Assembly (NCBI GenBank): GCA_963810935.1 | Contig: CAWEPK010000007.1 | Location: 64,001 to 128,000, forward strand | Reading direction: 5' to 3' | Source of the DNA: an uncultured delta proteobacterium | GTDB lineage: Bacteria; Desulfobacterota; Syntrophorhabdia; Syntrophorhabdales; WCHB1-27 | DNA length: 64,000 bases | In this document: positions 20,908 to 39,833 of the stretch, in pieces | How the letters are laid out: each line of letters begins with the position of its first letter | Numbering within the stretch: position 1 is the first letter of the stretch | The notes under the pieces: model-generated | What the model saw: the letters and a program-made list of their open reading frames with translations, nothing else | Databases searched by the model: none | What the model was told of the DNA's origin: nothing | Made by a program: the position numbers and the translations under genes

Positions 20908-22156
20908 TTAGCTATCGATTCCAACGTCTTGTTGGGGCGTCTTTTCGTGAACTGTGGTCAGCGGACGTTTGAAACCGCCGTCAACAGAAAGCGGTGAGGT
21001 GTCTGTCTTTCCGTTCATGGAACAGGGCGGATAAATTTGGTAGGCTTGGTTCTCTTGGCTTCGGAGCCTTGGTTTGAGGCCGACAAAACGCGCTCTTGCG
21101 CCTTTAAGGTATTCCTCGGAAAGTTCGCAGCAGGCCCATCTGCGGCTTAGAGCCTCAGCGACTTCCCCCGTAACACAGGAACCGGCGAAGGGATCGACTA
21201 CCAGATCGTTCTTGTCTGTAAGCATTCTGATGAAGTATTCAGGGATGCCGGCAGGAAACCGTGCGGGATGAACCGGCAAAGAGTTAGCACGGCAATACTC
21301 TTGGTATGCGCCATTTGACTCCGTATTGGCGAGAGCGATTAAATTAGGCGGAACGGAACCGCCGTTGTCTTTGCCGAACTTATCTGAGATGTCATGTCCC
21401 GAAGGTCTTAGTTTAGGGGTATAACCGTTCTTCAAAAGTGACTTCATCGAGTCGCTATAGGGCGCAAGGACCCGCTTGTTCGATGCCTTTGGCCAAGGCG
21501 ACCGAGAAAGCCACCAGATACAATCTACTGCGTCTTTGACCCGTATTCGTCGTACATTTACCCATTCTGCAGGGGTGGGGAGTTTAGCGGGGTTCCACCA
21601 ATAGTGTTCTTGACACAAATGAAAATCATAGTCCCGACACAACGTAATAAGCAGTTCAAAGTGATATAAAGACCGTGTGGGCATGCCCGACTTCCAAGAC
21701 CCGCCGATATCAATGACTAAGCTTCCCTGATTCTTTAGAACCCTTCTCATTCCCTCGGCAAAAGGACGAAACCACTTTACATATTGGTCGGCATCCTCAT
21801 TGCCATAAGCCTTTTTCCTTACTAGCCCGAAAGGCGGAGATGTGACTATTAGGTCAACGCTGTTCGGCTCCAACGTCCTATGCAACAAACCAAGCGAATC
21901 ACCATGGTAAATCTGCCCTAAATTGGTCTCCTCAAACAATGTCGGGTCCAACAGGCCATAGAACATCCCTGTTTCCTTTATTTGGGAGTCGAGGGTCTCG
22001 GGTTTTTGAGATGTAGCGTGTAAGTGTCGAAGATAGCCGCTTAACGAATCGAAGCCTTCTCGCCGAGTCTGCTTGTTCCATCTCAGCATATTCATTTGCT
22101 GCGAGACGGAAGTTAACAACACGACTTCGAGGATTCTGGCTCTTTGGACGCGGCAT
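20908..22156 (-). CDS. Beta-class amino-DNA methyltransferase (SPPF type, N4-C-like) with a probable N-terminal RHH domain joined across a frameshift near 22067
   Basis: TSPPF (motif IV) precedes HPARFP and DPFAGS (motif I). Upstream MPRPKSQNPRSRVVNFRLAANEYAEMEQA joins, after a 1-nt shift, RREGFDSLSGYLRHL. An alternative start is the ATG at 21966. Confidence 0.8.
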
Positions 22157-22219
22157 CGAGTTACAGTAAGACAAAAACTAATCTAAGTCAACTTATTTCT
22201 GTATGACAAATACCCGATG

Positions 22220-23218
22220 TCATCCGGCTTCGCGAAAGGTATTGGCCCGCCTGATGAAATCAATGCTGGGCCACTGTCGTCGGTCTGGTGGCAAAAAGAT
22301 TTCCCGGTTTAGGCGTGCTTCAAATTCGGGCATGCCTCCGCCGAGCCCCAACCGGACCAAGTCGCGCTTTTTTGTGGCATTAATCAGCATCCTTCTATCT
22401 TCGGTCAGATAAATCAGGCCCCGGTCATACGCCCTATGGTAGGTTGGTGAAAGACAAATCCCGTTCGTGACCTCGTCGGTACTGCCTTCGGCTCCTACGG
22501 GCAGAATGTGGGCGGCCTCAACCAGCCGTAGCTGAAGGCCGGTAACAGCGCACTTGCGATCGTATGCAACGGTAACCTTGCGGCGAAAGTCGCTGTCTCT
22601 TGCGAGGCGTGATATTTTGGCAATAATACGACGTCGTTCTTCTGGAACGGTAGCAACTTCTTCATCGGTCACAGCCTCAAAACGGGTGACCTTGCTCAGG
22701 ATGTCTGAGACCCTTGCGTCTGCTCCACTCTCATGAAGGGCCTCTACATTCAGTGAATACACGAGGATATTGTCGGGCCGGAATCCTATTGCAATTTCGT
22801 CATTTCCCTTTCGTACAAACGTAAACCCGTCTCGAACCGCGTTACGAAGTGCAGTGATGTTTATCTGTATGGATGGAGACCGAAGGGAGAAATCTCGGTG
22901 TTTGCGCAGATCAAAACCGGCAAAACACTTCGTGCCTGGGTCATAACCAAGGAGAAGGGTCGGGCCGTCGGGGTTTTCGGGAAGTGGCGGTGTCACCGAT
23001 GTCAATTGTATTCGATATTCATCAACGGGGCGTGCAGCCCCGCCACCATGAGTTAAGGTCCAAATATATATCCAGACCGAGAATGACATCTCGCCCGCGA
23101 CAATATAGAACCTACGGGGGTGTATTCGCTTCTCGGAAACGAGTGCGGCGGATGCTCCTGCTTCTGTGAATGCGTCTTCAATCGCACCGACGATTTGTGC
23201 AGGTGATAATGCTGCCAT
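22220..23218 (-). CDS. HNH endonuclease (putative restriction enzyme)
   Basis: C-terminal RDSDFR..V..AY...CAVTG...EAAHI...NGICLSPTYHRAYD (HNH_2-like); distinct N-terminal domain (YIWTLTHGGG..RP.DEYRIQ); adjacent to the methyltransferase. Confidence 0.85.
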   Translation of the reverse strand: MAALSPAQIVGAIEDAFTEAGASAALVSEKRIHPRRFYIVAGEMSFSVWIYIWTLTHGGGAARPVDEYRIQLTSVTPPLPENPDGPTLLLGYDPGTKCFAGFDLRKHRDFSLRSPSIQINITALRNAVRDGFTFVRKGNDEIAIGFRPDNILVYSLNVEALHESGADARVSDILSKVTRFEAVTDEEVATVPEERRRIIAKISRLARDSDFRRKVTVAYDRKCAVTGLQLRLVEAAHILPVGAEGSTDEVTNGICLSPTYHRAYDRGLIYLTEDRRMLINATKKRDLVRLGLGGGMPEFEARLNREIFLPPDRRQWPSIDFIRRANTFREAG

Positions 23219-27623: not shown

Positions 27624-29743
27624 TCAGAAATAATAGATCATGCTCAGCCGAAAAGTCAGGGGCTCGACGGGATGGAAGTGGACGTTATTGACCCCTGCGG
27701 CCGGCTCTCCCGGCAGGCGGGACGTATAATAGTATTCGATGTTGGCCGCCTTCGTGTTTAAAAGGTTCAATCCATCGAGCATAACGGTCCAGCTTTTCGT
27801 CAGCTTGTATCCCACCCGGCCGTTGAGGAGCCACGTTGCCGGGGCCCTTTCCGTGTTGTTGTCGACGAGCGGATAAGGGCCCTTGTAATGCAGTTGCAGG
27901 CTGCCGAAGTAGGGTCCCAGGTCATGCACGGCGACGTTGAACGTGCCCACACCCTCGACCGCTCCGGGTATGTGACTGCCCGGCGCGGATGGGTCAATGC
28001 CGGTAAGGCGGGCCTCGACGTAAGCGTAATCCGCGCGGATGGTGAGCCACGGCTTCGGGTTATAGGCGTTCGTCGAGCTCAACGCCGGTGCGGCGACTCG
28101 GCGGTCCGGGCGTTGTCGTGCCGGAGTCGCCGTCGAAAATAAGCTCCGATCCCATATCGAGCCGGTAAACGGTGAGCGCGCTTTGCAGGTTGGGGATAAA
28201 GGACGTGCGCGCCCCGACCTCGTACCCTTCGGTGCGCACCAGCGGGGTAACCCTCTGGCTGGGCAGGTTGGAATCCGGCCCGTTTCCGGGGGTTACGGTC
28301 ATCGTCGTCCCCCTGGCGTCGTTCGAGTGGAAGCCTCCGCCCGCGTTAATAAAATACTCCGTTTTGTCCCACGGGCCGAAAATAAGGCTCAGCTTCGGGT
28401 TGGCCATGCCCGCGCCCGAAGTGCCGGAATTGGCGGGGTTGTCGCTGCTCACGCGGAACTGGTAGAAGTCGGCCCGCACCCCCGTCTCGCTGCGGAACTT
28501 GGAAAGCCAGGGGATGCCGACCTGGTAGTAAAGGCCTTCGGAAGTCTCCATGACGCGGTCGGAGCGGACGATCGACAAAAGCTGCCTGTTCTGCGTGTTG
28601 TTGAGTCCCACGTTGATGTTGTCGTTTTGCGTTTGCAGGCCGATCGTGTGCTGTACGTCACGGCCGCCGACGTTAGTGAGCCAGGCGTGGCTTATGTTGA
28701 TCGCCTCGGTGACGCGCCGGTCCGTCTGCTGGAACTGGTCGCCGTGGACAGGGTCGTTCAGGAAATAAGTGAAGTCGGAATACAAGTCGAGGCTGCTTGC
28801 GATCGCGTATGCGTTGACGCGGGTGACGGAGGTGCCGGACGTGTGCTGCCAGGCCCCGGAAAGGCTGTAGCGCGAGGTGTTCGTGCCGTCCGTCGGGTTG
28901 AGGCTGCCGTATCGGCCGATGATGCCCTCATCCACTGCGCGCTGGGCGATCTGGTTCGTCGCGTTCCCCTCGCTGTGGTATCCCATGCCCTCGATGACGA
29001 GGCTGTCCGGCCCGTCCGCGAGGCTGTATTTCACGAGTCCGTTGAACTTGCGGAAGTGCTCGGGGTTGGTCCACGGGCCGTCATTGTATAAGCGTCTCCG
29101 AGGCGAAGAGGAGGTTGCCCTGGCCCAGCTTGGCCGAGTCTGCGAGGAGGGCGCGGGCGTAGTTGTTCTGCCCGCCCGTCACCATGGCGAACCCTTTTTC
29201 GAGCTTATCGACGTAACCGATGTTGATTGCCCCGACTGATGAGAAATCGCCCTCGTCCGCATAATACGGTCCCTTGCGATAGGCGACGCCCTGCACCAGC
29301 TCCGGTATGAGGAAGTTGAGGTCTGCATAACCCTGCCCGTGGGCGTTCGTCCGCTGGTTGACGAGCATGCCGTCTAAGGAGATGCGCAGGTCGGTGCCGT
29401 GGTCGAGGTTGACGCCGCGCAGGAAATACTGGTTCGCCTTGCCTTCGCCGCTGTGCTGTGTGACGACGAGGCCGGGCGTGACCTGCAATACCTCGCCGGG
29501 GTCGTAGGTCACCTGCGCCTCCACTTCCTTGCGCGGCGCGACGCCTTCACTCGCTGCGTCCTTAGGACCGGCGGGGGGCTCGGCCGAACCGGTGACTTCG
29601 ACGACGTCTAAAGTCTGTATCGGTTCGGGCGGTGCGGCAAAGGCAAGCGGTAGGGCGCATAAGGCGGGCAGGCCGCTCAAGATGATGAGAAGCAGCGCGG
29701 GAGCGCATGCCGATATTTTTTCGAGTCTGCTCTTATGTCTCAT
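27624..29743 (-). CDS. TonB-dependent receptor (probably for a metal such as Ni/Co), split by two probable frameshifts (~29089 and ~28075)
   Basis: Signal peptide, TonB box (DVVEVTG), plug PGLVVTQHSGEGKANQYFLRGVNLDHGTD. Frames join as ETL|YNDGPWTNPEHFRK and VEL|TNAYNPKPW. Ends with an aromatic residue (YYF). Confidence 0.88.
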
Positions 29744-32627: not shown

Positions 32628-33382
32628 GGCTTTGTTTCCTCCTTCCTAATCACGTGCATTTTTACGAGAAGCTCCGGCCTTCTTCTGCTGAGCAGCACTA
32701 TGACCCCCGCAGTCATGGCCCCCTCGACTATTCCGAGGGGAAGCTGTGTCGGGATGAAGGCGATCAGGAGCTTCCAGAAAAGAGGAATGAACGGCGTGTC
32801 GCCCTTTATGCCCGAGGCAAGCTCGACGGAGGTCGCGATGTAGGTTGCCCAGTCCGCGAATAAACCTGCAACAAAAGCGGCTATGCCGATTCCGACCCCC
32901 AGTCTTCTAAGTGCCTTGAACGTCAAATAACCCGCATAGGACCCCATGACGCCCATGGACATGATGTTGGCGCCTAAGGTGCTTAAGCCCCCGTGTGAGA
33001 GGAAGAGCGCCTGTATCAGGAGTGCCACGGAGGCGGCAAGCACGCTTATACCGGGGCCAAGGAGTATCGCGGACATCCCCGTGCCGCACGGGTGCGAGCA
33101 TGTCCCCACAGTGGGCACGGGTATGGGCATGCACGAGATGACAAAGACCGCAGCGGCCATGAACCCGACCAGGGGCTTAAACGAAATGTCAATAGAAGAA
33201 AGCCGTTTCAGCCTGTATAGACCGTACACTACGAAAGGCGTTGCCACGACGAACCACAATACTGCCCAGGGCAGGGGAAGTATTCCCTCCGTGATGTGCA
33301 TGGCATGAACGGGGCAGGGGTCGAGCACATGAAAAAAAGTAAAGGTTGAAAAAGAAATGAAGGTCAGTAAAGCTTTTTTCAT
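32624..33382 (-). CDS. cbiM: ECF cobalt transporter S component CbiM
   Basis: Cleavable leader ending VHA then MHITEGILP; GTCSHPCG and HGGLSTLGAN; located under a cobalamin riboswitch. Confidence 0.92.
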   Translation of the reverse strand: MKKALLTFISFSTFTFFHVLDPCPVHAMHITEGILPLPWAVLWFVVATPFVVYGLYRLKRLSSIDISFKPLVGFMAAAVFVISCMPIPVPTVGTCSHPCGTGMSAILLGPGISVLAASVALLIQALFLSHGGLSTLGANIMSMGVMGSYAGYLTFKALRRLGVGIGIAAFVAGLFADWATYIATSVELASGIKGDTPFIPLFWKLLIAFIPTQLPLGIVEGAMTAGVIVLLSRRRPELLVKMHVIRKEETKP

Positions 33383-33439
33383 ATTCCCTCCGAAATCAGC
33401 TATTGCAGTGTTCTAATGACAGTCCTCCGTTCCAGGCAC

Positions 33440-33479
33440 AAAAAAATCCCCGGACCTGGATCTACCAGGTCCGGGGATA
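33440..33479 (-). terminator. Intrinsic terminator in the cbiM leader (riboswitch expression platform)
   Basis: Minus strand: ATCCCCGGACCTGG-taga-tCCAGGTCCGGGGAT-TTTTTT. Confidence 0.8.
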
Positions 33480-33549
33480 CCGTTTTTCATCCTCCGAACA
33501 AAAAAAGCGACCGCCCCTTTACCACGGGGGACGAGTCTGTGTATAGCCT

Positions 33550-33715
33550 CCAAGAAGGTCTTCCGGCTTCCGGATCATATTACTTGCCGCGTCTTCCCAT
33601 CCCGCTTGGGCGGAACAGTGACATCGTGCGGCTTTCATCCCCGGTTACGGCGGCGGGTCCGCGACGGATTTGCACCGTCTTCCCTGTTATGGCCTATATG
33701 GCCTCTCGTGAGATA
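33550..33715 (-). ncRNA. Cobalamin riboswitch (controls cbiMN-porins)
   Basis: Minus strand: AACAGGGAAgacGGTGCAAATCCgtcGCGGACCCGCCGCCGTAA...CACTG...GGGAAG...AGCCGGAAGACCT (B12 box). Confidence 0.93.
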
Positions 33716-33819
33716 TTTATCTATAAGCCATCGGCCGGGGGGAAGTCAAGCCTGTTTTGCGGAATTATCATTTGACAACAGTAAGAGTGCGTGCTAAATA
33801 CTCTATAGTCTAACGGGTA

Positions 33820-33993
33820 GTCGGAGGCCCTGGAAAGGGCCTTAAAAGGGAAGCCGGTGCGATTCCGGCACGGACCCGCCGCTGTGTGTGGGGACGAAAC
33901 CCGCTGATAGGCCACTGTGTCGCAAGCCTTAAAGACGAAGCGGCATGGGAAGGCGCGGGGAGTAGGGTGATCCACGAGTCAGAAGACCTGCCG
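33820..33993 (+). ncRNA. Cobalamin riboswitch (controls cbpA-cbpB)
   Basis: AAAAGGGAAgccGGTGCGATTCCggcACGGACCCGCCGCTGT...GCCACTG...GGGAAGGC...GAGTCAGAAGACCTGCC; TTGACA-N17-TAAATA promoter at 33772..33800. Confidence 0.94.
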
Positions 33994-34021
33994 CAAACCC
34001 GATAACACTTGGAGAAAAGGT

Positions 34022-34062
34022 AAATCCCCAGGCTGATTAAGATCAGTTTGGGGATTTTTTTT
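34022..34062 (+). terminator. Intrinsic terminator downstream of the plus-strand cobalamin riboswitch
   Basis: AAATCCCCAGGCTGAT-taag-ATCAGTTTGGGGATTTTTTTT. Confidence 0.85.
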
Positions 34063-34114
34063 ATGCCCCTTATTGATGAACGAGCTCAATTTCTCTTGAA
34101 AGGAGGTGACGGAC

Positions 34115-34207
34115 ATGAAGAAAGACGTGATCGCCTATCGCAAGTCCTGTAAGTCGAGCGGAGCGGGCCTGTCCCACTACATCATGGCAACGAAGAAGGA
34201 AGAGTAG
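34115..34207 (+). CDS. cbpA: 30-aa modified-peptide precursor, CbpA-like (MKKDVIAYRKSCKSSGAGLSHYIMATKKEE)
   Basis: Missed by the ORF track. Strong AGGAGGTG RBS; IAYRKxCxxxGxGLSHYI is the signature I recall for CbpA; sits immediately upstream of a SPASM radical SAM gene. Confidence 0.88.
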   Translation: MKKDVIAYRKSCKSSGAGLSHYIMATKKEE

Positions 34208-34294
34208 TTTTAATTGCGAAACAGGAGACGCCCCGGTGCTTTTGCCGAGGCGTCTCCTGCAACGTCCCGGAAAGATCAGCTCTGGAGGTTTGCG

Positions 34295-35705
34295 GTGTCA
34301 AACGTCGGAACAAGTAACCATGCGTCATCGAGAGGTACATACTTCAATACCGGAAACGGGCCGACTATTCAACTTATCGATATAGGGCATCAGGATTATA
34401 TTGCCCTGCTGGCCCCTGAAACAGCCTTCTGGTCGCTTCTCAAGAAAGACAAGGTTGGAGAAGCCCTCTCCAACGGTCCTTTCATGGAGCAATATCGTGA
34501 AAAGGCTGCAAGTTTCTCCGCCGAAATGGAGACGCTCCGCTTCGGTCTCAGCCCCGGCGCTGTTTATTTCAATCCGACAGAGAGGTGTAACCTCAATTGC
34601 GATTATTGCTATATCCCTGAGGCCATGCGGAAAAACGGCGAGCACATGTCGGAGGAAGCGCTGTTCGAGGCATTGGCTATACTGCAAGAGCACTTCGCGG
34701 AAACGGTAACGGACGGACGGCGCCCCCAGGTCGTCTTCCACGGCTCGGAGCCAATGATGGCCCGCAAGGTCGTGTTTGCGGCCATCGAACGCTATAAGGA
34801 TGCTTTCCTTTTCGGGATACAGACAAACGGGACGCTGCTGGATGACGCCGCCGTAGAATTCCTGACGGAGCGCGGCATCAGCATCGGTCTGTCCCTTGAC
34901 GGTCACGTCGGGGAGTTAGCGGACGCGGCCAGGAGGAACTGGGACGGAGCGGGCGTCTCCGGGAAGGTCGTCTCCGTCATCAGGAAGCTGCGGAACTATG
35001 AGAATTACAGCGTCATCTGCACCGTAACGCAACGGAACATGGAGGCCCTGCCCGATATCGTAGACCACTTCCATTCCCTGGGTATCCCCTCCTGTATGCT
35101 CAACCCTGTGCGGTGCACGCTGCCCGGCGGCCGCAACCTCAAACCGCAAGACCATGAGCTGGCAGGCCATTACCTCAAGGCCCTGGACCGGAATTACGAA
35201 TTGTACCGGACAACGGGCCGAAAGATGGTAGTCGCAAATTTTGCCAATGTCTTGTTGAGCATCGTCGCCCCGACCGCGCGCCGGCTCATGTGCGATATAT
35301 CCCCGTGCGGCGGCGGTCGCTGCTTCTTCGCCGTTTCTGCAAAAGGAGACCTCTTCCCGTGCAGCGAGTTCATAGGGATCCCGGAGTTTTGCGGGGGAAA
35401 CCTTTTCAAGGGCGAGATCAGACAGGCCCTCGATAGCCCCGCCTTCAAGAAAGTCACCGGCCGCCTTATCGAAAGGATCGAGCCGTGCGCCTCCTGCGCC
35501 GTCCGCCATTTCTGCGGTTCGCCGTGTCCGGCGGAAGCCTACGCAATGAACGGCGGAATCGACCGGCCGGGCGCATTTTGCGAGTCTGTACGAAGAACAG
35601 GTTCGCTACGCCTTGCGGGTGATAGCCGACGGCAGGGAAGACGAGTACCTGTGGGACAATTGGGACGCGGATACGACAACCAGCATGAACATCACGTCTC
35701 TTTGA
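34295..35705 (+). CDS. cbpB: Peptide-modifying radical SAM/SPASM enzyme, CbpB-like, with a probable +1 frameshift near 35585
   Basis: CNLNCDYC radical SAM motif, FHGSEP, QTNG; SPASM CGGGRC...FPC...CASC...CGSPC...FC. After AFCE the shifted frame gives LYEEQVRYALRVIADGREDEYLWD to the stop at 35705. GTG start after GGAGG. Confidence 0.85.
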
Positions 35706-36103
35706 GGCGACGCAAGGGCGCAGGGAAGAACGGAAAAGAAGAAGGGGACGGGCTGCTTTTTTCAAGTCTGTCGAGCGAAACATGAAGGCTATTTGTTGAT
35801 GCTCGTTACTTCAGTTGTGGCGATGCCCAACAAGATACCGAATATGGCGCCGGTTCATCCCTTCCTGCGAGCGCCTGTCCGGCTGAGTCGCTAGTTTTGG
35901 TAGGAGAAAGTGTTGCTGTCGCCAACCGGACGTCGCCATCGGGTTCGTCTGCAAAGAAGGGCCAGTATCAATCTTTTCGTCTTCCGGGATCATACTCCCC
36001 GAACCATGAGCAACAAGCGCAAGAAAGATGTTGTTAAACCTGCGCTGTTCTTGTTAGCATATAGAACGTAAAACACCAAACAAGTGCACAGGAGAGGCAA
36101 ACC

Positions 36104-36724
36104 GTGAAGAACATGGGCCTTGCAGCATTGGTAAAATCCATGGGATTGAAACGCGAAGCATTCATCTTTGCAACCTTGTTTTGCCTCCTCATCGTTAGTT
36201 GTTCTTTTTCGGTATACGCCGCAGGACCGGACGGCTTTGCCAATATCCCCTGGGGGGCGACGAAGCTGCAAGTCGACCAGGCGATGGCGCGGCAGGGGTT
36301 CAGGCCCGATCCTCGTAATCTATGCAGTCCTGGGATTACTTGCGCCGCCTACCATGGTAATCTGGCCGGGACTCCCGGATACCTTGAGTTTAGTTTTCTT
36401 AACGACGCTTTCTACTCCGGCCGTTTTATGATCCAGGTAAGCGATGGTGGTGGTACCGTGCAACGTGCATGCTCGAAGTTCTTACCCATTATTCAGGCCA
36501 AATATGGCTCACCAACGCAAACGGGTAATCGGCAGGGCATGACAGAATTTCAATGGGACGGGCTTCAACCTCCCGGTTCCCCGGACGCTGTCCAGATATA
36601 TGTGTCTTGCGACCCTGAATCCGAACGTTGCGGAGGGCAGTACTGTACCAGTGTCTTTACGATTATGTATAAGAACACCGGTCTGCAGCAGCATCTCGCC
36701 GGTCAGGACAGGAACGGATTGTAA
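36104..36724 (+). CDS. Hypothetical exported protein
   Basis: AGGAGAGG RBS, signal peptide, GF..IPWG motif and several Cys residues. Confidence 0.65.
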   Translation: MKNMGLAALVKSMGLKREAFIFATLFCLLIVSCSFSVYAAGPDGFANIPWGATKLQVDQAMARQGFRPDPRNLCSPGITCAAYHGNLAGTPGYLEFSFLNDAFYSGRFMIQVSDGGGTVQRACSKFLPIIQAKYGSPTQTGNRQGMTEFQWDGLQPPGSPDAVQIYVSCDPESERCGGQYCTSVFTIMYKNTGLQQHLAGQDRNGL

Positions 36725-36914: not shown

Positions 36915-37012
36915 TTGACATAGCTCGCTTACGATTCTAAACTAAACGTGCCATGAAGGCAGCGACTGGTCCGAAGGCCGGCCCAGGTAAAGTTGCGTCG
37001 TGGCATTTTTTT
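36915..37012 (+). promoter_or_regulatory. Sigma70 promoter plus leader attenuator-like element, GCCAYGAAGGC motif (copy 3)
   Basis: TTGACA-N17-TAAACT (36915..36943), then TGCCATGAAGGCAGC-ga-CTGGTC(CGAA)GGCCGG...GTTGCGTCGTGGCA-TTTTTTT, just before the nikM RBS. Confidence 0.72.
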
Positions 37013-37028
37013 GCCTAAGGAGAGGCGC

Positions 37029-37712
37029 CTGCATATTCCGGACGGATATTTGAGCCCGCAAACCTACCTGCCGCTTTACGGCGCATCGGCCGTGTTCTGG
37101 TCCGTCGCCGTGAAGAAAGTCAGGCGGGACCTGCCAGCTAAGCATGTCCCATACCTTGCGATGGCAGCCGCCTTTTGCTTTTTGATCCAGATGTTCAACG
37201 TGCCTGCGCCGGGGGGGACGTCGGGACATGCGGTCGGGGCAGCGGTTGTCGCCATTCTCCTGGGGCCCTGGACCGCTGTCATCGCGCTTTCGGTCGTCCT
37301 CGTTATCCAGGCCCTAGTCTTCGGAGACGGCGGGATCACGGCGCTCGGCGCTAACTGCTTCAACATGGCGGTGCTGATGCCGTTTGTCTCTTATGCTTTT
37401 TTCAGGCTCATAGCGAGGGGCGCGCCCGGCCGCCGCAGGGTCTTCGTGGCCGCCTTCGTCGCGGGCTACGCGGGTCTTTGCGCGGCAGCGACAGCGGCGG
37501 GCTTCGAGTTCGGCATACAGCCGCTCATCGCGAGCGGACCCGACGGCAGGCCGCTTTACGCCCCGTACCCGTTGAAGATCGCAGTACCCGCGATGGCTTT
37601 AAGCCACCTGCTCGTGTTCGGCGTCATGGAGGGCCTCGTCACGGCCCTGATCGTCGCCTACGTATTCCGCCAGGAGCCGGACCGGTTCAAGGGCCTGCGG
37701 GGGCCGGCATGA
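37029..37712 (+). CDS. nikM: ECF nickel/cobalt S component (NikM-type), apparent CTG start codon
   Basis: (M)HIPDGYLSP, MFNVPAPGGTSGHAVG and FGDGGITALGAN; AAGGAGAGG RBS sits just before CTG-CAT-ATT. Confidence 0.88.
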   Translation: MHIPDGYLSPQTYLPLYGASAVFWSVAVKKVRRDLPAKHVPYLAMAAAFCFLIQMFNVPAPGGTSGHAVGAAVVAILLGPWTAVIALSVVLVIQALVFGDGGITALGANCFNMAVLMPFVSYAFFRLIARGAPGRRRVFVAAFVAGYAGLCAAATAAGFEFGIQPLIASGPDGRPLYAPYPLKIAVPAMALSHLLVFGVMEGLVTALIVAYVFRQEPDRFKGLRGPA

Positions 37713-38084
37713 TTGAAAAAGGCGGCGACCGAGAATAGCGATCGGGACGAGCGGGCATTCAAAAAGAAGCTCCTCATCGGGCTCATCGTGCTTGCCTGCC
37801 TCACGCCTCTCGGCATTATCCTCCCGCGGATTGCAGGCGGGGGCGAGGCTTGGGGGGAGTGGGGCCCGGAATATTTGCACAAGGCGCTCGGGTATTTGCC
37901 CGAAGGCTTGCAGAAGAGTATCGGCGTCTGGCATGCGCCTGTCTCGGGCTACGCGCTTCCGGCCGCAGGAGACTCCCTTGCCTCGCAGATAGCGTCGTAT
38001 GCCGCCTCCGGCGTGGCCGGGCTGCTCATAATAGTGGCGGTCGTATTTATCGTGATGAAGGTAATCAAAGGCCATGAACGATAG
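37713..38084 (+). CDS. nikN: PDGLE-domain ECF accessory protein (NikN-like)
   Basis: LTPLG...AWGEW...PEGL...APVSGY; two TM helices. Exact start is uncertain. Confidence 0.75.
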   Translation: MKKAATENSDRDERAFKKKLLIGLIVLACLTPLGIILPRIAGGGEAWGEWGPEYLHKALGYLPEGLQKSIGVWHAPVSGYALPAAGDSLASQIASYAASGVAGLLIIVAVVFIVMKVIKGHER

Positions 38085-38997
38085 GGTGCCGAAGTTTTTA
38101 TTATCGAAGGCGGAGCCGCCTGCGCCGCGTGCCCACAGCCGCATCCGCCGCCCGTTCATCGACCGTGCCCTCAACCGCATCGGCTCCGTGATCACCGTCA
38201 CCTTCGTCCAGTGGGAGCTTGCCTCGAAAAAGGGCCTCCTTCAATCGGTAGACGCCCGCGTCAAGGTGGTCTGCATGCTCTTTCTTGCGGTGGCCGCAAC
38301 GCTGAAGAACGACCTCGCGGCGCTGTTCGCCCTCGGCTGTTTCCTCGTCCTGCTTGCGGCGTTATCAAGGATCGCCCTCGGCTTCTTCCTGCGCAGGGTC
38401 TGCGTGCTTGCGGTCCTTTTCGGCGTGCTGGTGGGTCTTCCCGCTGCCTTCAACCTGGTGACGCCGGGCAGGGTCGTGCTGCCCATCGTCGCGTTCGACG
38501 GCCCTGTCCGCATCGGCCCGTTTGCCTTGCCCGCTGCGATAGGCATAACGGCCGAGGGGCTGACCATCGTCGCCCGCCTGTTCCTTCGCGTCGCGGATTG
38601 CCTGTGCGCCTCTTTCCTTTTGCTGTACACGACGCCGCTTTCGCAGATCATCAGGTCGCTGAAAGTTTTCCGGGTGCCCGACGCGGTCGTCCTCGTGCTC
38701 TTCCTGGCCTACAAATATATCTTCCTTTTTTCGAAGATGCTCGAGGATATGTACCTGGCCGCGCGCAGCAGGCTCGCCGGCTCCTTCAGCATGAAAGAGG
38801 CGAGGGACTGGTCCGCAGGCAGGGGGGCGGTGCTCTTCCGGAAGACCCAGGAAAGGTGTGAAGACGTGTTCCAGGCGATGACTGCGAGGGGCCTTAACAA
38901 GGGGATCGTCCTTGCCGATTCGTGCGCCCTGAAGGCGGCCGATATCGGCGCCGGCCTTGGCCTGGCTGTTGCGGGAGGTCTGCTGTTATGGCTGTGA
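38074..38997 (+). CDS. nikQ: ECF transmembrane T component (NikQ/CbiQ)
   Basis: DARVK, YKYIFLF...ARSR and AMTARG motifs. Confidence 0.88.
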   Translation: MNDRVPKFLLSKAEPPAPRAHSRIRRPFIDRALNRIGSVITVTFVQWELASKKGLLQSVDARVKVVCMLFLAVAATLKNDLAALFALGCFLVLLAALSRIALGFFLRRVCVLAVLFGVLVGLPAAFNLVTPGRVVLPIVAFDGPVRIGPFALPAAIGITAEGLTIVARLFLRVADCLCASFLLLYTTPLSQIIRSLKVFRVPDAVVLVLFLAYKYIFLFSKMLEDMYLAARSRLAGSFSMKEARDWSAGRGAVLFRKTQERCEDVFQAMTARGLNKGIVLADSCALKAADIGAGLGLAVAGGLLLWL

Positions 38998-39833
38998 CGG
39001 ACTGGCCGGGCATCCTCCAGGCAAGGGACGTTTCATACTCATATCACGGGAAGATCACCGCGTTGTCCGGCGTCACGCTCGACATCCCGGAAGGCCGGAT
39101 AGTGGCTGTCATAGGCTCCAACGGATGCGGCAAATCGACGCTCCTCCACGTGCTCGACGGCCTGGTCTACCCCGCTTCCGGCGCGGTGCTATTCAAGGGG
39201 GCGGAGGTGAGCGAGCGCTCCCTGAAGGACCCGCAGTTTTTGCGCCGCTTCAGGGGGGAGGTCGGCTATGTCTTCCAGGATTCGGACGTCCAGCTATTCT
39301 GCCCGACCGTGCTCGACGAGTTGAAGTTCGGGCCTTTGCAGCTCGGCCTCGGCGACAAAGAGGCGCAGGATAGGGGCATGCAGGTGCTGGAGATGCTGGA
39401 GGTAAGCGCCCTAGCGGACAGGCCGCCGTACATGCTTTCGTCAGGCGAGAAGAAGAGGGTGGCCCTGGGCGCGGCGCTTACCATGAACCCGGACGTCCTG
39501 CTGATGGACGAGCCGACGAACGGCCTCGACCCGAGGACGCAGGTTTTCCTGGTGGAGCTGGTCCTCGCCCTGAATGAGGCGGGCAAGACGATTGTGATCG
39601 CCACCCACGACCTGTCGCTGGTAAGCGAGCTGCGGTGCACGGTCGCGGTGCTTTCGGAAGCGCACGCGATCGAGCGCATCGGAGAATCGGAAGCGATACT
39701 TAACGACAACGAGCTTCTTTTAAAAGTGAACCTGATCCACGAGCACGTGCACTTCCACGGCGAAGTAGCCCACCGTCATATCCACTCGCATTACCTGTTC
39801 CATCGACATAACGAAAGTGCGAAAATAATATAA
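38988..39833 (+). CDS. nikO: ECF ATPase (NikO/CbiO) with His-rich C-terminus
   Basis: GSNGCGKST, LSSGEKKR and LMDEPT; tail HEHVHFHGEVAHRHIHSHYLFHRH. Confidence 0.9.
   Translation: MAVTDWPGILQARDVSYSYHGKITALSGVTLDIPEGRIVAVIGSNGCGKSTLLHVLDGLVYPASGAVLFKGAEVSERSLKDPQFLRRFRGEVGYVFQDSDVQLFCPTVLDELKFGPLQLGLGDKEAQDRGMQVLEMLEVSALADRPPYMLSSGEKKRVALGAALTMNPDVLLMDEPTNGLDPRTQVFLVELVLALNEAGKTIVIATHDLSLVSELRCTVAVLSEAHAIERIGESEAILNDNELLLKVNLIHEHVHFHGEVAHRHIHSHYLFHRHNESAKII

Follow-up and report, generated by a model that had tools for sequence, protein, structure and literature searches.

A cobalamin-riboswitch-led cassette of the precursor peptide CbpA and the radical SAM enzyme CbpB, with a proposed late corrinoid-level role

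A 64,000-nucleotide stretch of DNA from an uncultured delta proteobacterium of the Syntrophorhabdales (assembly GCA_963810935.1, contig CAWEPK010000007.1, positions 64,001 to 128,000; the whole stretch is called the window below) carries a self-contained cassette made up of a cobalamin riboswitch, the gene cbpA for a 30-residue precursor peptide, and cbpB, which encodes its putative maturase, an enzyme of the radical SAM (S-adenosylmethionine)/SPASM type. We favour a reading, with a probability of roughly 0.6, in which CbpB would cross-link CbpA, the modified peptide would act inside the cell at a late, corrinoid-level step of vitamin B12 metabolism, and the cassette would be induced by corrinoid. 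CbpA/CbpB is a curated NCBIfam family, relatives of the pair are named so by NCBI, and the copy in the window is an ordinary member. New here are the family-wide position of cbpA upstream of cbpB, the linkage of the pair to riboswitches or cob operons, the occurrence of CobS without corrin-ring synthesis in carriers, and a leader layout in which helix P13 and the terminator share bases. An earlier note on this DNA had described the family as curated, found near cobalamin genes and uncharacterised; this is borne out, and a literature search whose coverage lay outside subscription journals found no paper on the pair.

Both proteins pass the curated cut-offs of the families to which they had been assigned. 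CbpA matches TIGR04164 (cobo_pep, 'modified peptide precursor CbpA') with 43.8 bits against a cut-off of 35 (E = 1.3e-11), which confirms the small open reading frame (ORF) that the note had proposed; a full Shine-Dalgarno sequence, AAGGAGGTGA, precedes it, and the exact 30-residue sequence is present in a public protein collection, where it is called on five contigs. In an alignment of 54 peptides R9, C12, G16, G18, L19 and H21 are invariant; the window peptide has all of these as well as S20, and its Tyr8 falls in a variable column. The serine of the GLSHY motif is replaced by threonine or alanine in four loci (GLAHY/GLTHY) and the tyrosine by phenylalanine in two. A 786-residue 'arylsulfatase A-like' call also belongs to a CbpA cluster at 90% identity (P0139), possibly by chance. 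The identification of the larger gene as a SPASM radical SAM enzyme of the CbpB family is likewise confirmed: residues 1–430 match positions 2–406 of TIGR04163 (rSAM_cobopep, 'peptide-modifying radical SAM enzyme CbpB') with 656.5 bits (cut-off 375), and Pfam recognises Radical_SAM (53.1 bits) and SPASM (23.9 bits) domains. The radical SAM motif CxxxCxxC (C98, C102, C105) is invariant in 23 sequences, as are nine cysteines on the SPASM side (C333, C338, C343, C356, C398, C401, C407, C411 and C429), which we take, by analogy, to belong to two auxiliary clusters. The window pair thus agrees with the family in cut-offs, adjacency, motif and cobalamin context, and nothing essential differs; its own features are an 84-nucleotide spacer with a hairpin and a one-base frameshift of the assembly, both treated below.

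Relatives of CbpB were collected by a pattern scan in which each species was represented by a single genome; it gave at least 564 stretches among the matches listed, from Desulfobacterota, Chloroflexota, Planctomycetota, Verrucomicrobiota, Omnitrophota, Acidobacteriota, Actinomycetota and Alpha- and Betaproteobacteria. A set of 86 loci was then compared, comprising the best 80 of the at least 564, five from relatives and the window (L008 and L050 in this set are identical in sequence and are counted twice). Wherever at least 250 nt were available upstream of cbpB (79 loci), a CbpA-like peptide is encoded directly upstream (79/79; 75 found by motif and four by profile), and 65 of the 79 have their own cobalamin riboswitch directly upstream of the pair, as called with an iterated nhmmer profile. 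Rfam agreed with 18 of 20 positive calls; in the other two the aptamer is truncated where the contig ends. It found no riboswitch in any of 11 negative loci. Among 13 loci without a riboswitch of their own, 11 lie inside cob/btu operons, for example cobQ-cobD-cobA-cbiA-cbiC-cbpAB-cbiMNQO and cobT-cobS-...-cbpAB-...-btuFCD-cobA; a separate locus, L040, has a partial match only. The link of cbpAB to the B12 regulon is therefore near universal in the sample. Within flanks of up to 8 kb per side, genes for late steps (cbiA, cobQ, cobD/cbiB, cobT, cobS, cobU, cobC, cobA or an aminotransferase) occur near cbpAB in 25 of the 86 loci, ring-synthesis genes in 10, corrinoid transporters in seven and cobalt transporters in six, the window included; these counts are minima, since named neighbour clusters had to be present in at least two loci.

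These neighbourhoods also bear on the idea that cbpAB makes an exported antimicrobial or signalling RiPP (ribosomally synthesised and post-translationally modified peptide) that is under B12 control by chance. A precursor encoded beside a radical SAM/SPASM enzyme typifies RiPP loci, and hairpins after precursor genes, such as the one described below, are usual in RiPP operons. Genes for export, proteolysis or immunity do not recur beside cbpAB in the 86 loci, however, and the largest neighbour cluster other than CbpB, present in 12 of them, is the ABC (ATP-binding cassette) ATPase of btu/cbi operons; the CbpA core is moreover almost invariant between phyla, unlike diversifying bacteriocins. 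We consider an exported product very improbable. Since the pair lacks a companion exporter or protease, the modified peptide would be expected to stay in the cell.

The leader of the cassette consists of a possible promoter, a cobalamin aptamer that matches the Rfam model over its full length, and an intrinsic terminator with a 16-pair stem (core stem −19.8 kcal/mol) and a T run (Table 1). Aptamer and terminator are as previously described; the proposed promoter fares less evenly, its TTGACA and TAAATA boxes being visible and the former conserved in both aligned relatives (L005 and L006), whereas a consensus scan of 33300–36100 called no promoter-like site. The sign of the control is the point on which we depart from the earlier reading, which had B12 repressing the pair. 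In the experiments of Procknow et al. (PMC10653944), P13 and the terminator of a repressing corrinoid riboswitch coexist and the antiterminator uses the 3′ side of P13; in the activating cobT riboswitch of Alkalihalobacillus halodurans, P13 and the terminator share bases and the ligand-stabilised P13 is itself the antiterminator. That riboswitch responds to cobinamide and is the single activating corrinoid riboswitch described so far. The cbpA leader has the second layout, which makes repression doubtful: the first hairpin past P1 (loop AAAGGUAAA; −4.1 kcal/mol) is P13-like, and its 3′ arm lies inside the 5′ arm of the terminator, with 8 nt in common. Because the two hairpins cannot form together, a ligand-stabilised P13 would exclude the terminator and switch cbpAB on when corrinoid binds. 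By analogy with the cobT riboswitch we think it somewhat more probable than not that the cbpA riboswitch is an ON switch for corrinoid.

The layout recurs in the family. Among 62 cbpA leaders, P13 and the terminator share 4–10 nt in 43, a hairpin occurs without a shared terminator in 17, and no hairpin was found in two; of the 19 non-sharing leaders, at least two (L036 and L075) are false negatives on visual inspection. Seven alphaproteobacterial leaders have no terminator; in these the 5′ arm and loop of P13 (UCCGAUG) show complementarity with the Shine-Dalgarno region CAUCGGAG, and to judge from this pairing the same logic may operate there at the level of translation. As in the cobT riboswitch, which has the same mutually exclusive pairing (PMC10653944), a UGG-type L13 loop would face an xCCCG L5 loop, and the function served would be a late cobalamin step; the cbpA leaders have other genes downstream. 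A hand tally, confounded by relatedness, gave Watson-Crick complementarity between the L5 base before CCCG and the L13 base that follows GG for 35 of 52 leaders; from the marginals about 17 would be expected. Classical leaders served as controls: in the L020 cob operon, the cbiM leader of the window and the cobU-cobT leader of the same genome, a P13-like hairpin has 0 nt of overlap with the main terminator. The cbiM leader (33446–33560, minus strand) is only partly usable as an OFF control, because its P13-like hairpin stands directly before seven U of its own, a second, 14-pair terminator follows, and inspection of this leader found no antiterminator.

Two further riboswitches of the same genome were seen in passing. 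One (L091/L093; G000:C8:771178-773600) has a platform nearly identical to that of cbpA, with 8 nt common to P13 and terminator, and is followed by a small ORF rich in Cys and by an aldehyde:ferredoxin oxidoreductase; such a riboswitch target is unusual, and it is uninformative on sign. The other (L090/L094; G000:C16:126944-129400) lies upstream of genes for a CdhD-like corrinoid iron-sulfur protein and a pterin-binding protein, so that its target is a corrinoid-dependent enzyme as opposed to a supply gene.

The cassette could instead be an OFF switch with the same genes and a role in B12 supply, the apparent P13 being merely an antiterminator and the ligand favouring the terminator by some unseen route. 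We regard this as a substantial, if minority, possibility. It would be in keeping with there being one described activating example (PMC10653944), with the weak kissing loop in the window and with the 11 loci in which cbpAB lies inside cob operons. It sits less well with the position of the hairpin, which is the first past P1, where P13 lies, and with its loop, which is of the GAUGGUAAA type found in the separate P13-like hairpins of classical cbiM and cob leaders. Between phyla, the 5′ arm of the hairpin also follows divergent 3′-arm sequences (UCCCCAGG, GGCUCCGG, GGGUUCC) just as the 3′ arm of the terminator does, and no third element is visible that could serve as a separate antiterminator. 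Several considerations nevertheless weigh against activation. Nearly all tested cobalamin riboswitches repress. In the window the kissing loop amounts to three pairs (GGU with ACC) and P13 is weak beside the terminator (−4.1 versus −19.8 kcal/mol); 17 of the 62 leaders lack the shared layout by the test used; and cbpAB shares a transcript with cob genes in 11 loci, the L020 operon having a leader of classical layout. Embedded and standalone loci can be reconciled if the standalone leaders sense incomplete corrinoids, so that in both settings cbpAB is expressed in the presence of intermediates.

The proposed chemistry follows from the architecture of CbpB. Its AlphaFold model (predicted local distance difference test, pLDDT, 80; predicted template modelling score, pTM, 0.84) has three strands and two helices before the barrel, an arrangement that in the model resembles the recognition domains of peptide maturases. 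The closest solved proteins are CteB (sequence E = 1e-33), followed by an anaerobic sulfatase maturase, ChlB, TigE and SuiB, and CteB is also the best Foldseek match over the full length, N-terminal domain included (5why/5wgg; E = 2.6e-22, template modelling score 0.63–0.72). CteB is the thioether-forming maturase of SCIFF, and both peptides bear cysteine. The two systems differ in that CbpB is only 21–23% identical to CteB, CbpA has one cysteine against six in SCIFF, and CbpA/CbpB is wired to B12. Assignment of CbpB as an anaerobic sulfatase maturase was rejected on its score for TIGR03942 (109.5 against a cut-off of 349).

A complex of CbpA from the window with an intact CbpB of the same genus, SAM and three clusters was predicted with ipSAE (interaction prediction score from aligned errors) values of 0.90, 0.88 and 0.90, whereas the best of three controls scored 0.00; 116 of 157 solved complexes and two of 215 mismatched pairs reach the mark applied to this score, a calibration that is rough (own alignments, ligands present), and the score may partly reflect likeness to solved maturase-peptide complexes such as CteB with its peptide. 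The runs share at least 66% of their contacts, and the partner has a pLDDT of at least 70. CbpA residues 2–26 are placed: residues 4–7 (the conserved V-I-A) pair with CbpB strand 45–50 of the N-terminal domain, residues 8–10 touch CbpB 324–326 and 463–465, and the core follows the strands of the barrel and the first cysteines of the SPASM domain. CbpA is also touched by the C-terminal residues of CbpB (459–469), a tail that the frameshift would remove. The prediction supports binding of CbpA through the recognition domain. CbpB would then hold the V-I-A stretch as an added beta strand on this domain, with the core C-x(3-6)-G-x-G-L-[STA]-H-[YF] threaded into the barrel beside the SPASM clusters, and would form one intramolecular cross-link. 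The nature of this link is a tentative matter, and the likeliest form, a thioether from the lone invariant cysteine to a carbon in the G-x-G-L-x-H-Y stretch, has, in our estimate, a little less than an even chance. Two points count against it. CbpB scores far under the cut-offs of the thioether families (PapB, the next best family, 145.8 of 340; SCIFF TIGR03974, 125.3 of 425; StsB, 57.9 of 625), such that its likeness to thioether maturases would, by analogy, be one of mechanism and not membership of a sactipeptide or ranthipeptide family; and the lone cysteine could be a metal ligand instead of a cross-link partner.

PqqA/PqqE and MftA/MftC are likewise pairs of a small conserved peptide and a SPASM enzyme with no exporter and housekeeping-like conservation, as CbpA/CbpB is; PqqE (6c8v) stands at rank 50 among the fold matches of CbpB. 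Unlike these systems, cbpAB is not accompanied by genes for an accessory peptidase or tailoring enzymes, and there is no sign of a released small molecule. Another possibility is that CbpA serves CbpB as a small partner or scaffold and that the enzyme in truth acts on a corrinoid intermediate or a lower-ligand precursor. CbpB is 63–83% identical between phyla, which is high for a peptide maturase and would, with the near-fixed peptide core, fit a housekeeping enzyme, and cobT directly follows cbpB in L011, L077 and L079. Both the domain layout and the best fold match (CteB) are nonetheless those of peptide maturases with a recognition domain, and in the predicted complex CbpA runs past the recognition strand, the strands of the barrel and the cysteines of the SPASM domain. 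We therefore judge a scaffold role improbable and retain CbpA as the likely substrate.

As to what the modified peptide does, the earlier note had proposed a B12-repressed peptide acting in cobalt capture or chaperoning in support of corrin synthesis, in concert with cbiMN and a porin, or else an accessory to corrinoid synthesis. The context in the window invites the first idea. The divergent pairing with cbiM, a cbiN-like gene and an OprB-family porin is real, and a cbiM-PDGLE-cbiQ-cbiO cluster lies downstream; elsewhere cbpAB stands between cbiC and cbiM (L010, L025) or beside NicO (L014, L085). Cysteine and histidine, invariant in CbpA, are classic cobalt ligands, CbiC is present in all six CbpB-bearing relatives discussed below, and repression is the norm for the riboswitch class. 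The wider comparison weakens the idea. Cobalt transporters are found in only six of the 86 loci, against 25 with late-step genes; a single Cys with a single His is a poor site for cobalt; the leader is laid out as in the activating riboswitch; and cbpAB occurs in salvage-type operons with btuFCD and cobT/cobS (L012, L015, L018, L022, L023, L026). Searches of 50 whole CbpB-bearing genomes found CbiC in 35; of the 15 without it, all have CobS and one has CbiD. The 14 genomes lacking both CbiC and CbiD look, from their gene content, like corrinoid salvagers, which would have no use for cobalt insertion, and they include all five of the salvage-type operon loci among the 50 (L012, L015, L022, L023, L026). 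We consider the cobalt model unlikely.

What survives of that proposal, given the late-step neighbours and the retention of CobS, is the accessory to corrinoid synthesis: on the gene distribution, cbpAB seems to accompany cobamide assembly and not specifically cobalt. The modified CbpA would serve a late step at the level of the corrinoid, that is, the handling, completing or salvaging of corrinoids as opposed to cobalt uptake, and its invariant histidine would be a candidate cobalt ligand. Two observations temper this reading. The absence of CbiC and CbiD rests on metagenome-assembled genomes (MAGs) of unstated completeness. In a panel of 41 relatives scored for CbpB and CbiC, moreover, CbpB is present in six, all with CbiC, and absent from all 22 genomes without CbiC, but 13 of the 19 CbiC-bearing relatives also lack it; the pair is thus dispensable for B12 synthesis. 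Some of the salvage-type operons (L012, L015, L023, L026), which also carry btuFCD, cobA and a TonB-dependent receptor beside cbpAB, have cbpAB flanked by Asn_synthase-like, Diphthami_syn_2 (PF01902) and small radical SAM proteins, which could be further corrinoid-remodelling genes.

Within the cassette, the balance of peptide and enzyme is most likely set by the spacer hairpin, which would raise peptide over enzyme by partial termination or by protection of the upstream transcript. The cbpA stop lies 84 nt before cbpB in the window, whereas in most loci the genes abut or overlap. Folding against shuffled sequences confirms the hairpin: a 96-nt region around it reaches −39.2 kcal/mol (z = −2.87), and 1 of 200 shuffles is as good. 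Of 19 loci with a spacer of at least 55 nt, 18 fold at z ≤ −2.19 (100 mononucleotide shuffles each) with a strong hairpin after the cbpA stop; in nearly all such loci a long G+C-rich stem lies just past the stop, in sequences unrelated between phyla, and L006 keeps its hairpin despite a changed inner stem and loop relative to the window. This recurrence supports the suggestion, already made in the earlier note, that the hairpin tunes the peptide-to-enzyme ratio.

Table 1. Positions of the features of the cbpAB cassette and of the neighbouring divergent riboswitch in the window
Feature	Positions	Strand	Details
Second, divergent cobalamin riboswitch heading cbiM-cbiN-porin	33536..33724	−	RF00174, 103.9 bits; outside the cassette
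Possible sigma-70 promoter	33772..33800	+	TTGACA 33772–33777, 17 nt, TAAATA 33795–33800; by inspection
Cobalamin riboswitch aptamer	33805..34009	+	RF00174, 112.3 bits (gathering score 31.5), full model 1–189
L5 loop of the cbpA riboswitch	33874–33878	+	ACCCG
P13-like hairpin	34008..34032	+	5′ arm 34008–34015, loop 34016–34024, 3′ arm 34025–34032
Intrinsic terminator of the cbpA expression platform	34022..34062	+	16-pair stem 34022–34057, then T run
Shine-Dalgarno sequence of cbpA	34100..34109	+	AAGGAGGTGA; by inspection; conserved in L005 and L006
cbpA, 30-residue precursor peptide	34115..34207	+	ATG 34115 to TAG 34207; TIGR04164
Stable hairpin in the cbpA/cbpB spacer	34222..34259	+	15 pairs, one mismatch
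cbpB, radical SAM/SPASM enzyme	34295..35705	+	GTG 34295 (GGAGG 34284–34288) to TGA 35705; intact form 469 residues

The reading frame of cbpB is broken in the window, most likely by an error in the assembly consensus. Compared with L005 (same genus) and L006 (same family), the gene has one surplus base at 35585/35586, and its next-frame piece (35586–35702) matches positions 407–428 of TIGR04163. Contigs from the three covering public runs of one study (X1, X2 and X4; X3 does not cover the site) all lack one letter at 35585; these runs may include the source sample of the window and so are not independent of it, but they represent a different assembly. A 99% identical protein of another assembly also reads through the break. 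The absence of the extra base in all three covering runs and the intact relatives point to an assembly error, and the need for a frame correction, already recognised from the sequence, is upheld. The 99% identical protein (P0001) itself carries a spurious N-terminal extension from a one-base difference near the cbpB start (window 34290–34300), where the X1 contigs match the window without a gap. On the minus strand, a TonB-dependent receptor is split (27627–29743; Plug 29743–29084, barrel 29034–28063, further ORF 28082–27627), likely through further one-base assembly errors or as a pseudogene, consistent with scattered indels in the assembly. The genome, a MAG of 21 contigs that is 93% complete, has a single copy of CbpB.

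Around the cassette, one intergenic region holds two divergent cobalamin riboswitches, the second leading away from cbpAB into cbiM (33382–32624, minus strand), the cbiN-like gene, the OprB-family porin and then a TonB-dependent receptor and TonB. Downstream of cbpB lie a 206-residue ORF (36104–36721) with no Pfam match and a second cluster of the energy-coupling factor type (36993–39830, plus strand) encoding CbiM, a PDGLE-domain protein, CbiQ and an ABC ATPase. Further away in the window (20911–23218, minus strand) a DNA methylase (N6_N4_Mtase) beside an MTaX1/HNH protein is likely a restriction-modification pair. In related loci, genes for a sulfatase or FGE-sulfatase are found no more than 8 kb from cbpAB in L017, L029, L047, L051, L053 and L063, possibly by chance, and Rfam matches include a c-di-GMP-I riboswitch (L006:446-545), a group II intron domain (L044:11629-11699) and a 6S RNA (L016:3145-3318).

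CbpA/CbpB is found in at least 564 species-level genomes and is nearly always tied to the B12 regulon. If the cbpA leaders are ON switches, the sole known activating corrinoid riboswitch would become a widespread class. A bolder version, which we think rather unlikely in its entirety, is that these leaders form a large class of activating corrinoid riboswitches, of at least two designs, with P13 opposed to a terminator or to a helix masking the Shine-Dalgarno sequence, and in many phyla, that induce a cross-linked, His-bearing intracellular peptide which escorts or binds incomplete corrinoids in late cobamide assembly or salvage, an undescribed kind of peptide helper. Should CbpA act in corrinoid handling, it would supply a missing part of a pathway regarded as completely mapped and would bear on corrinoid sharing in anaerobic communities. 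Cultured carriers of CbpB, namely Dechloromonas agitata, Rhodoblastus acidophilus and Desulfomonile tiedjei, make the questions of chemistry and sign testable.

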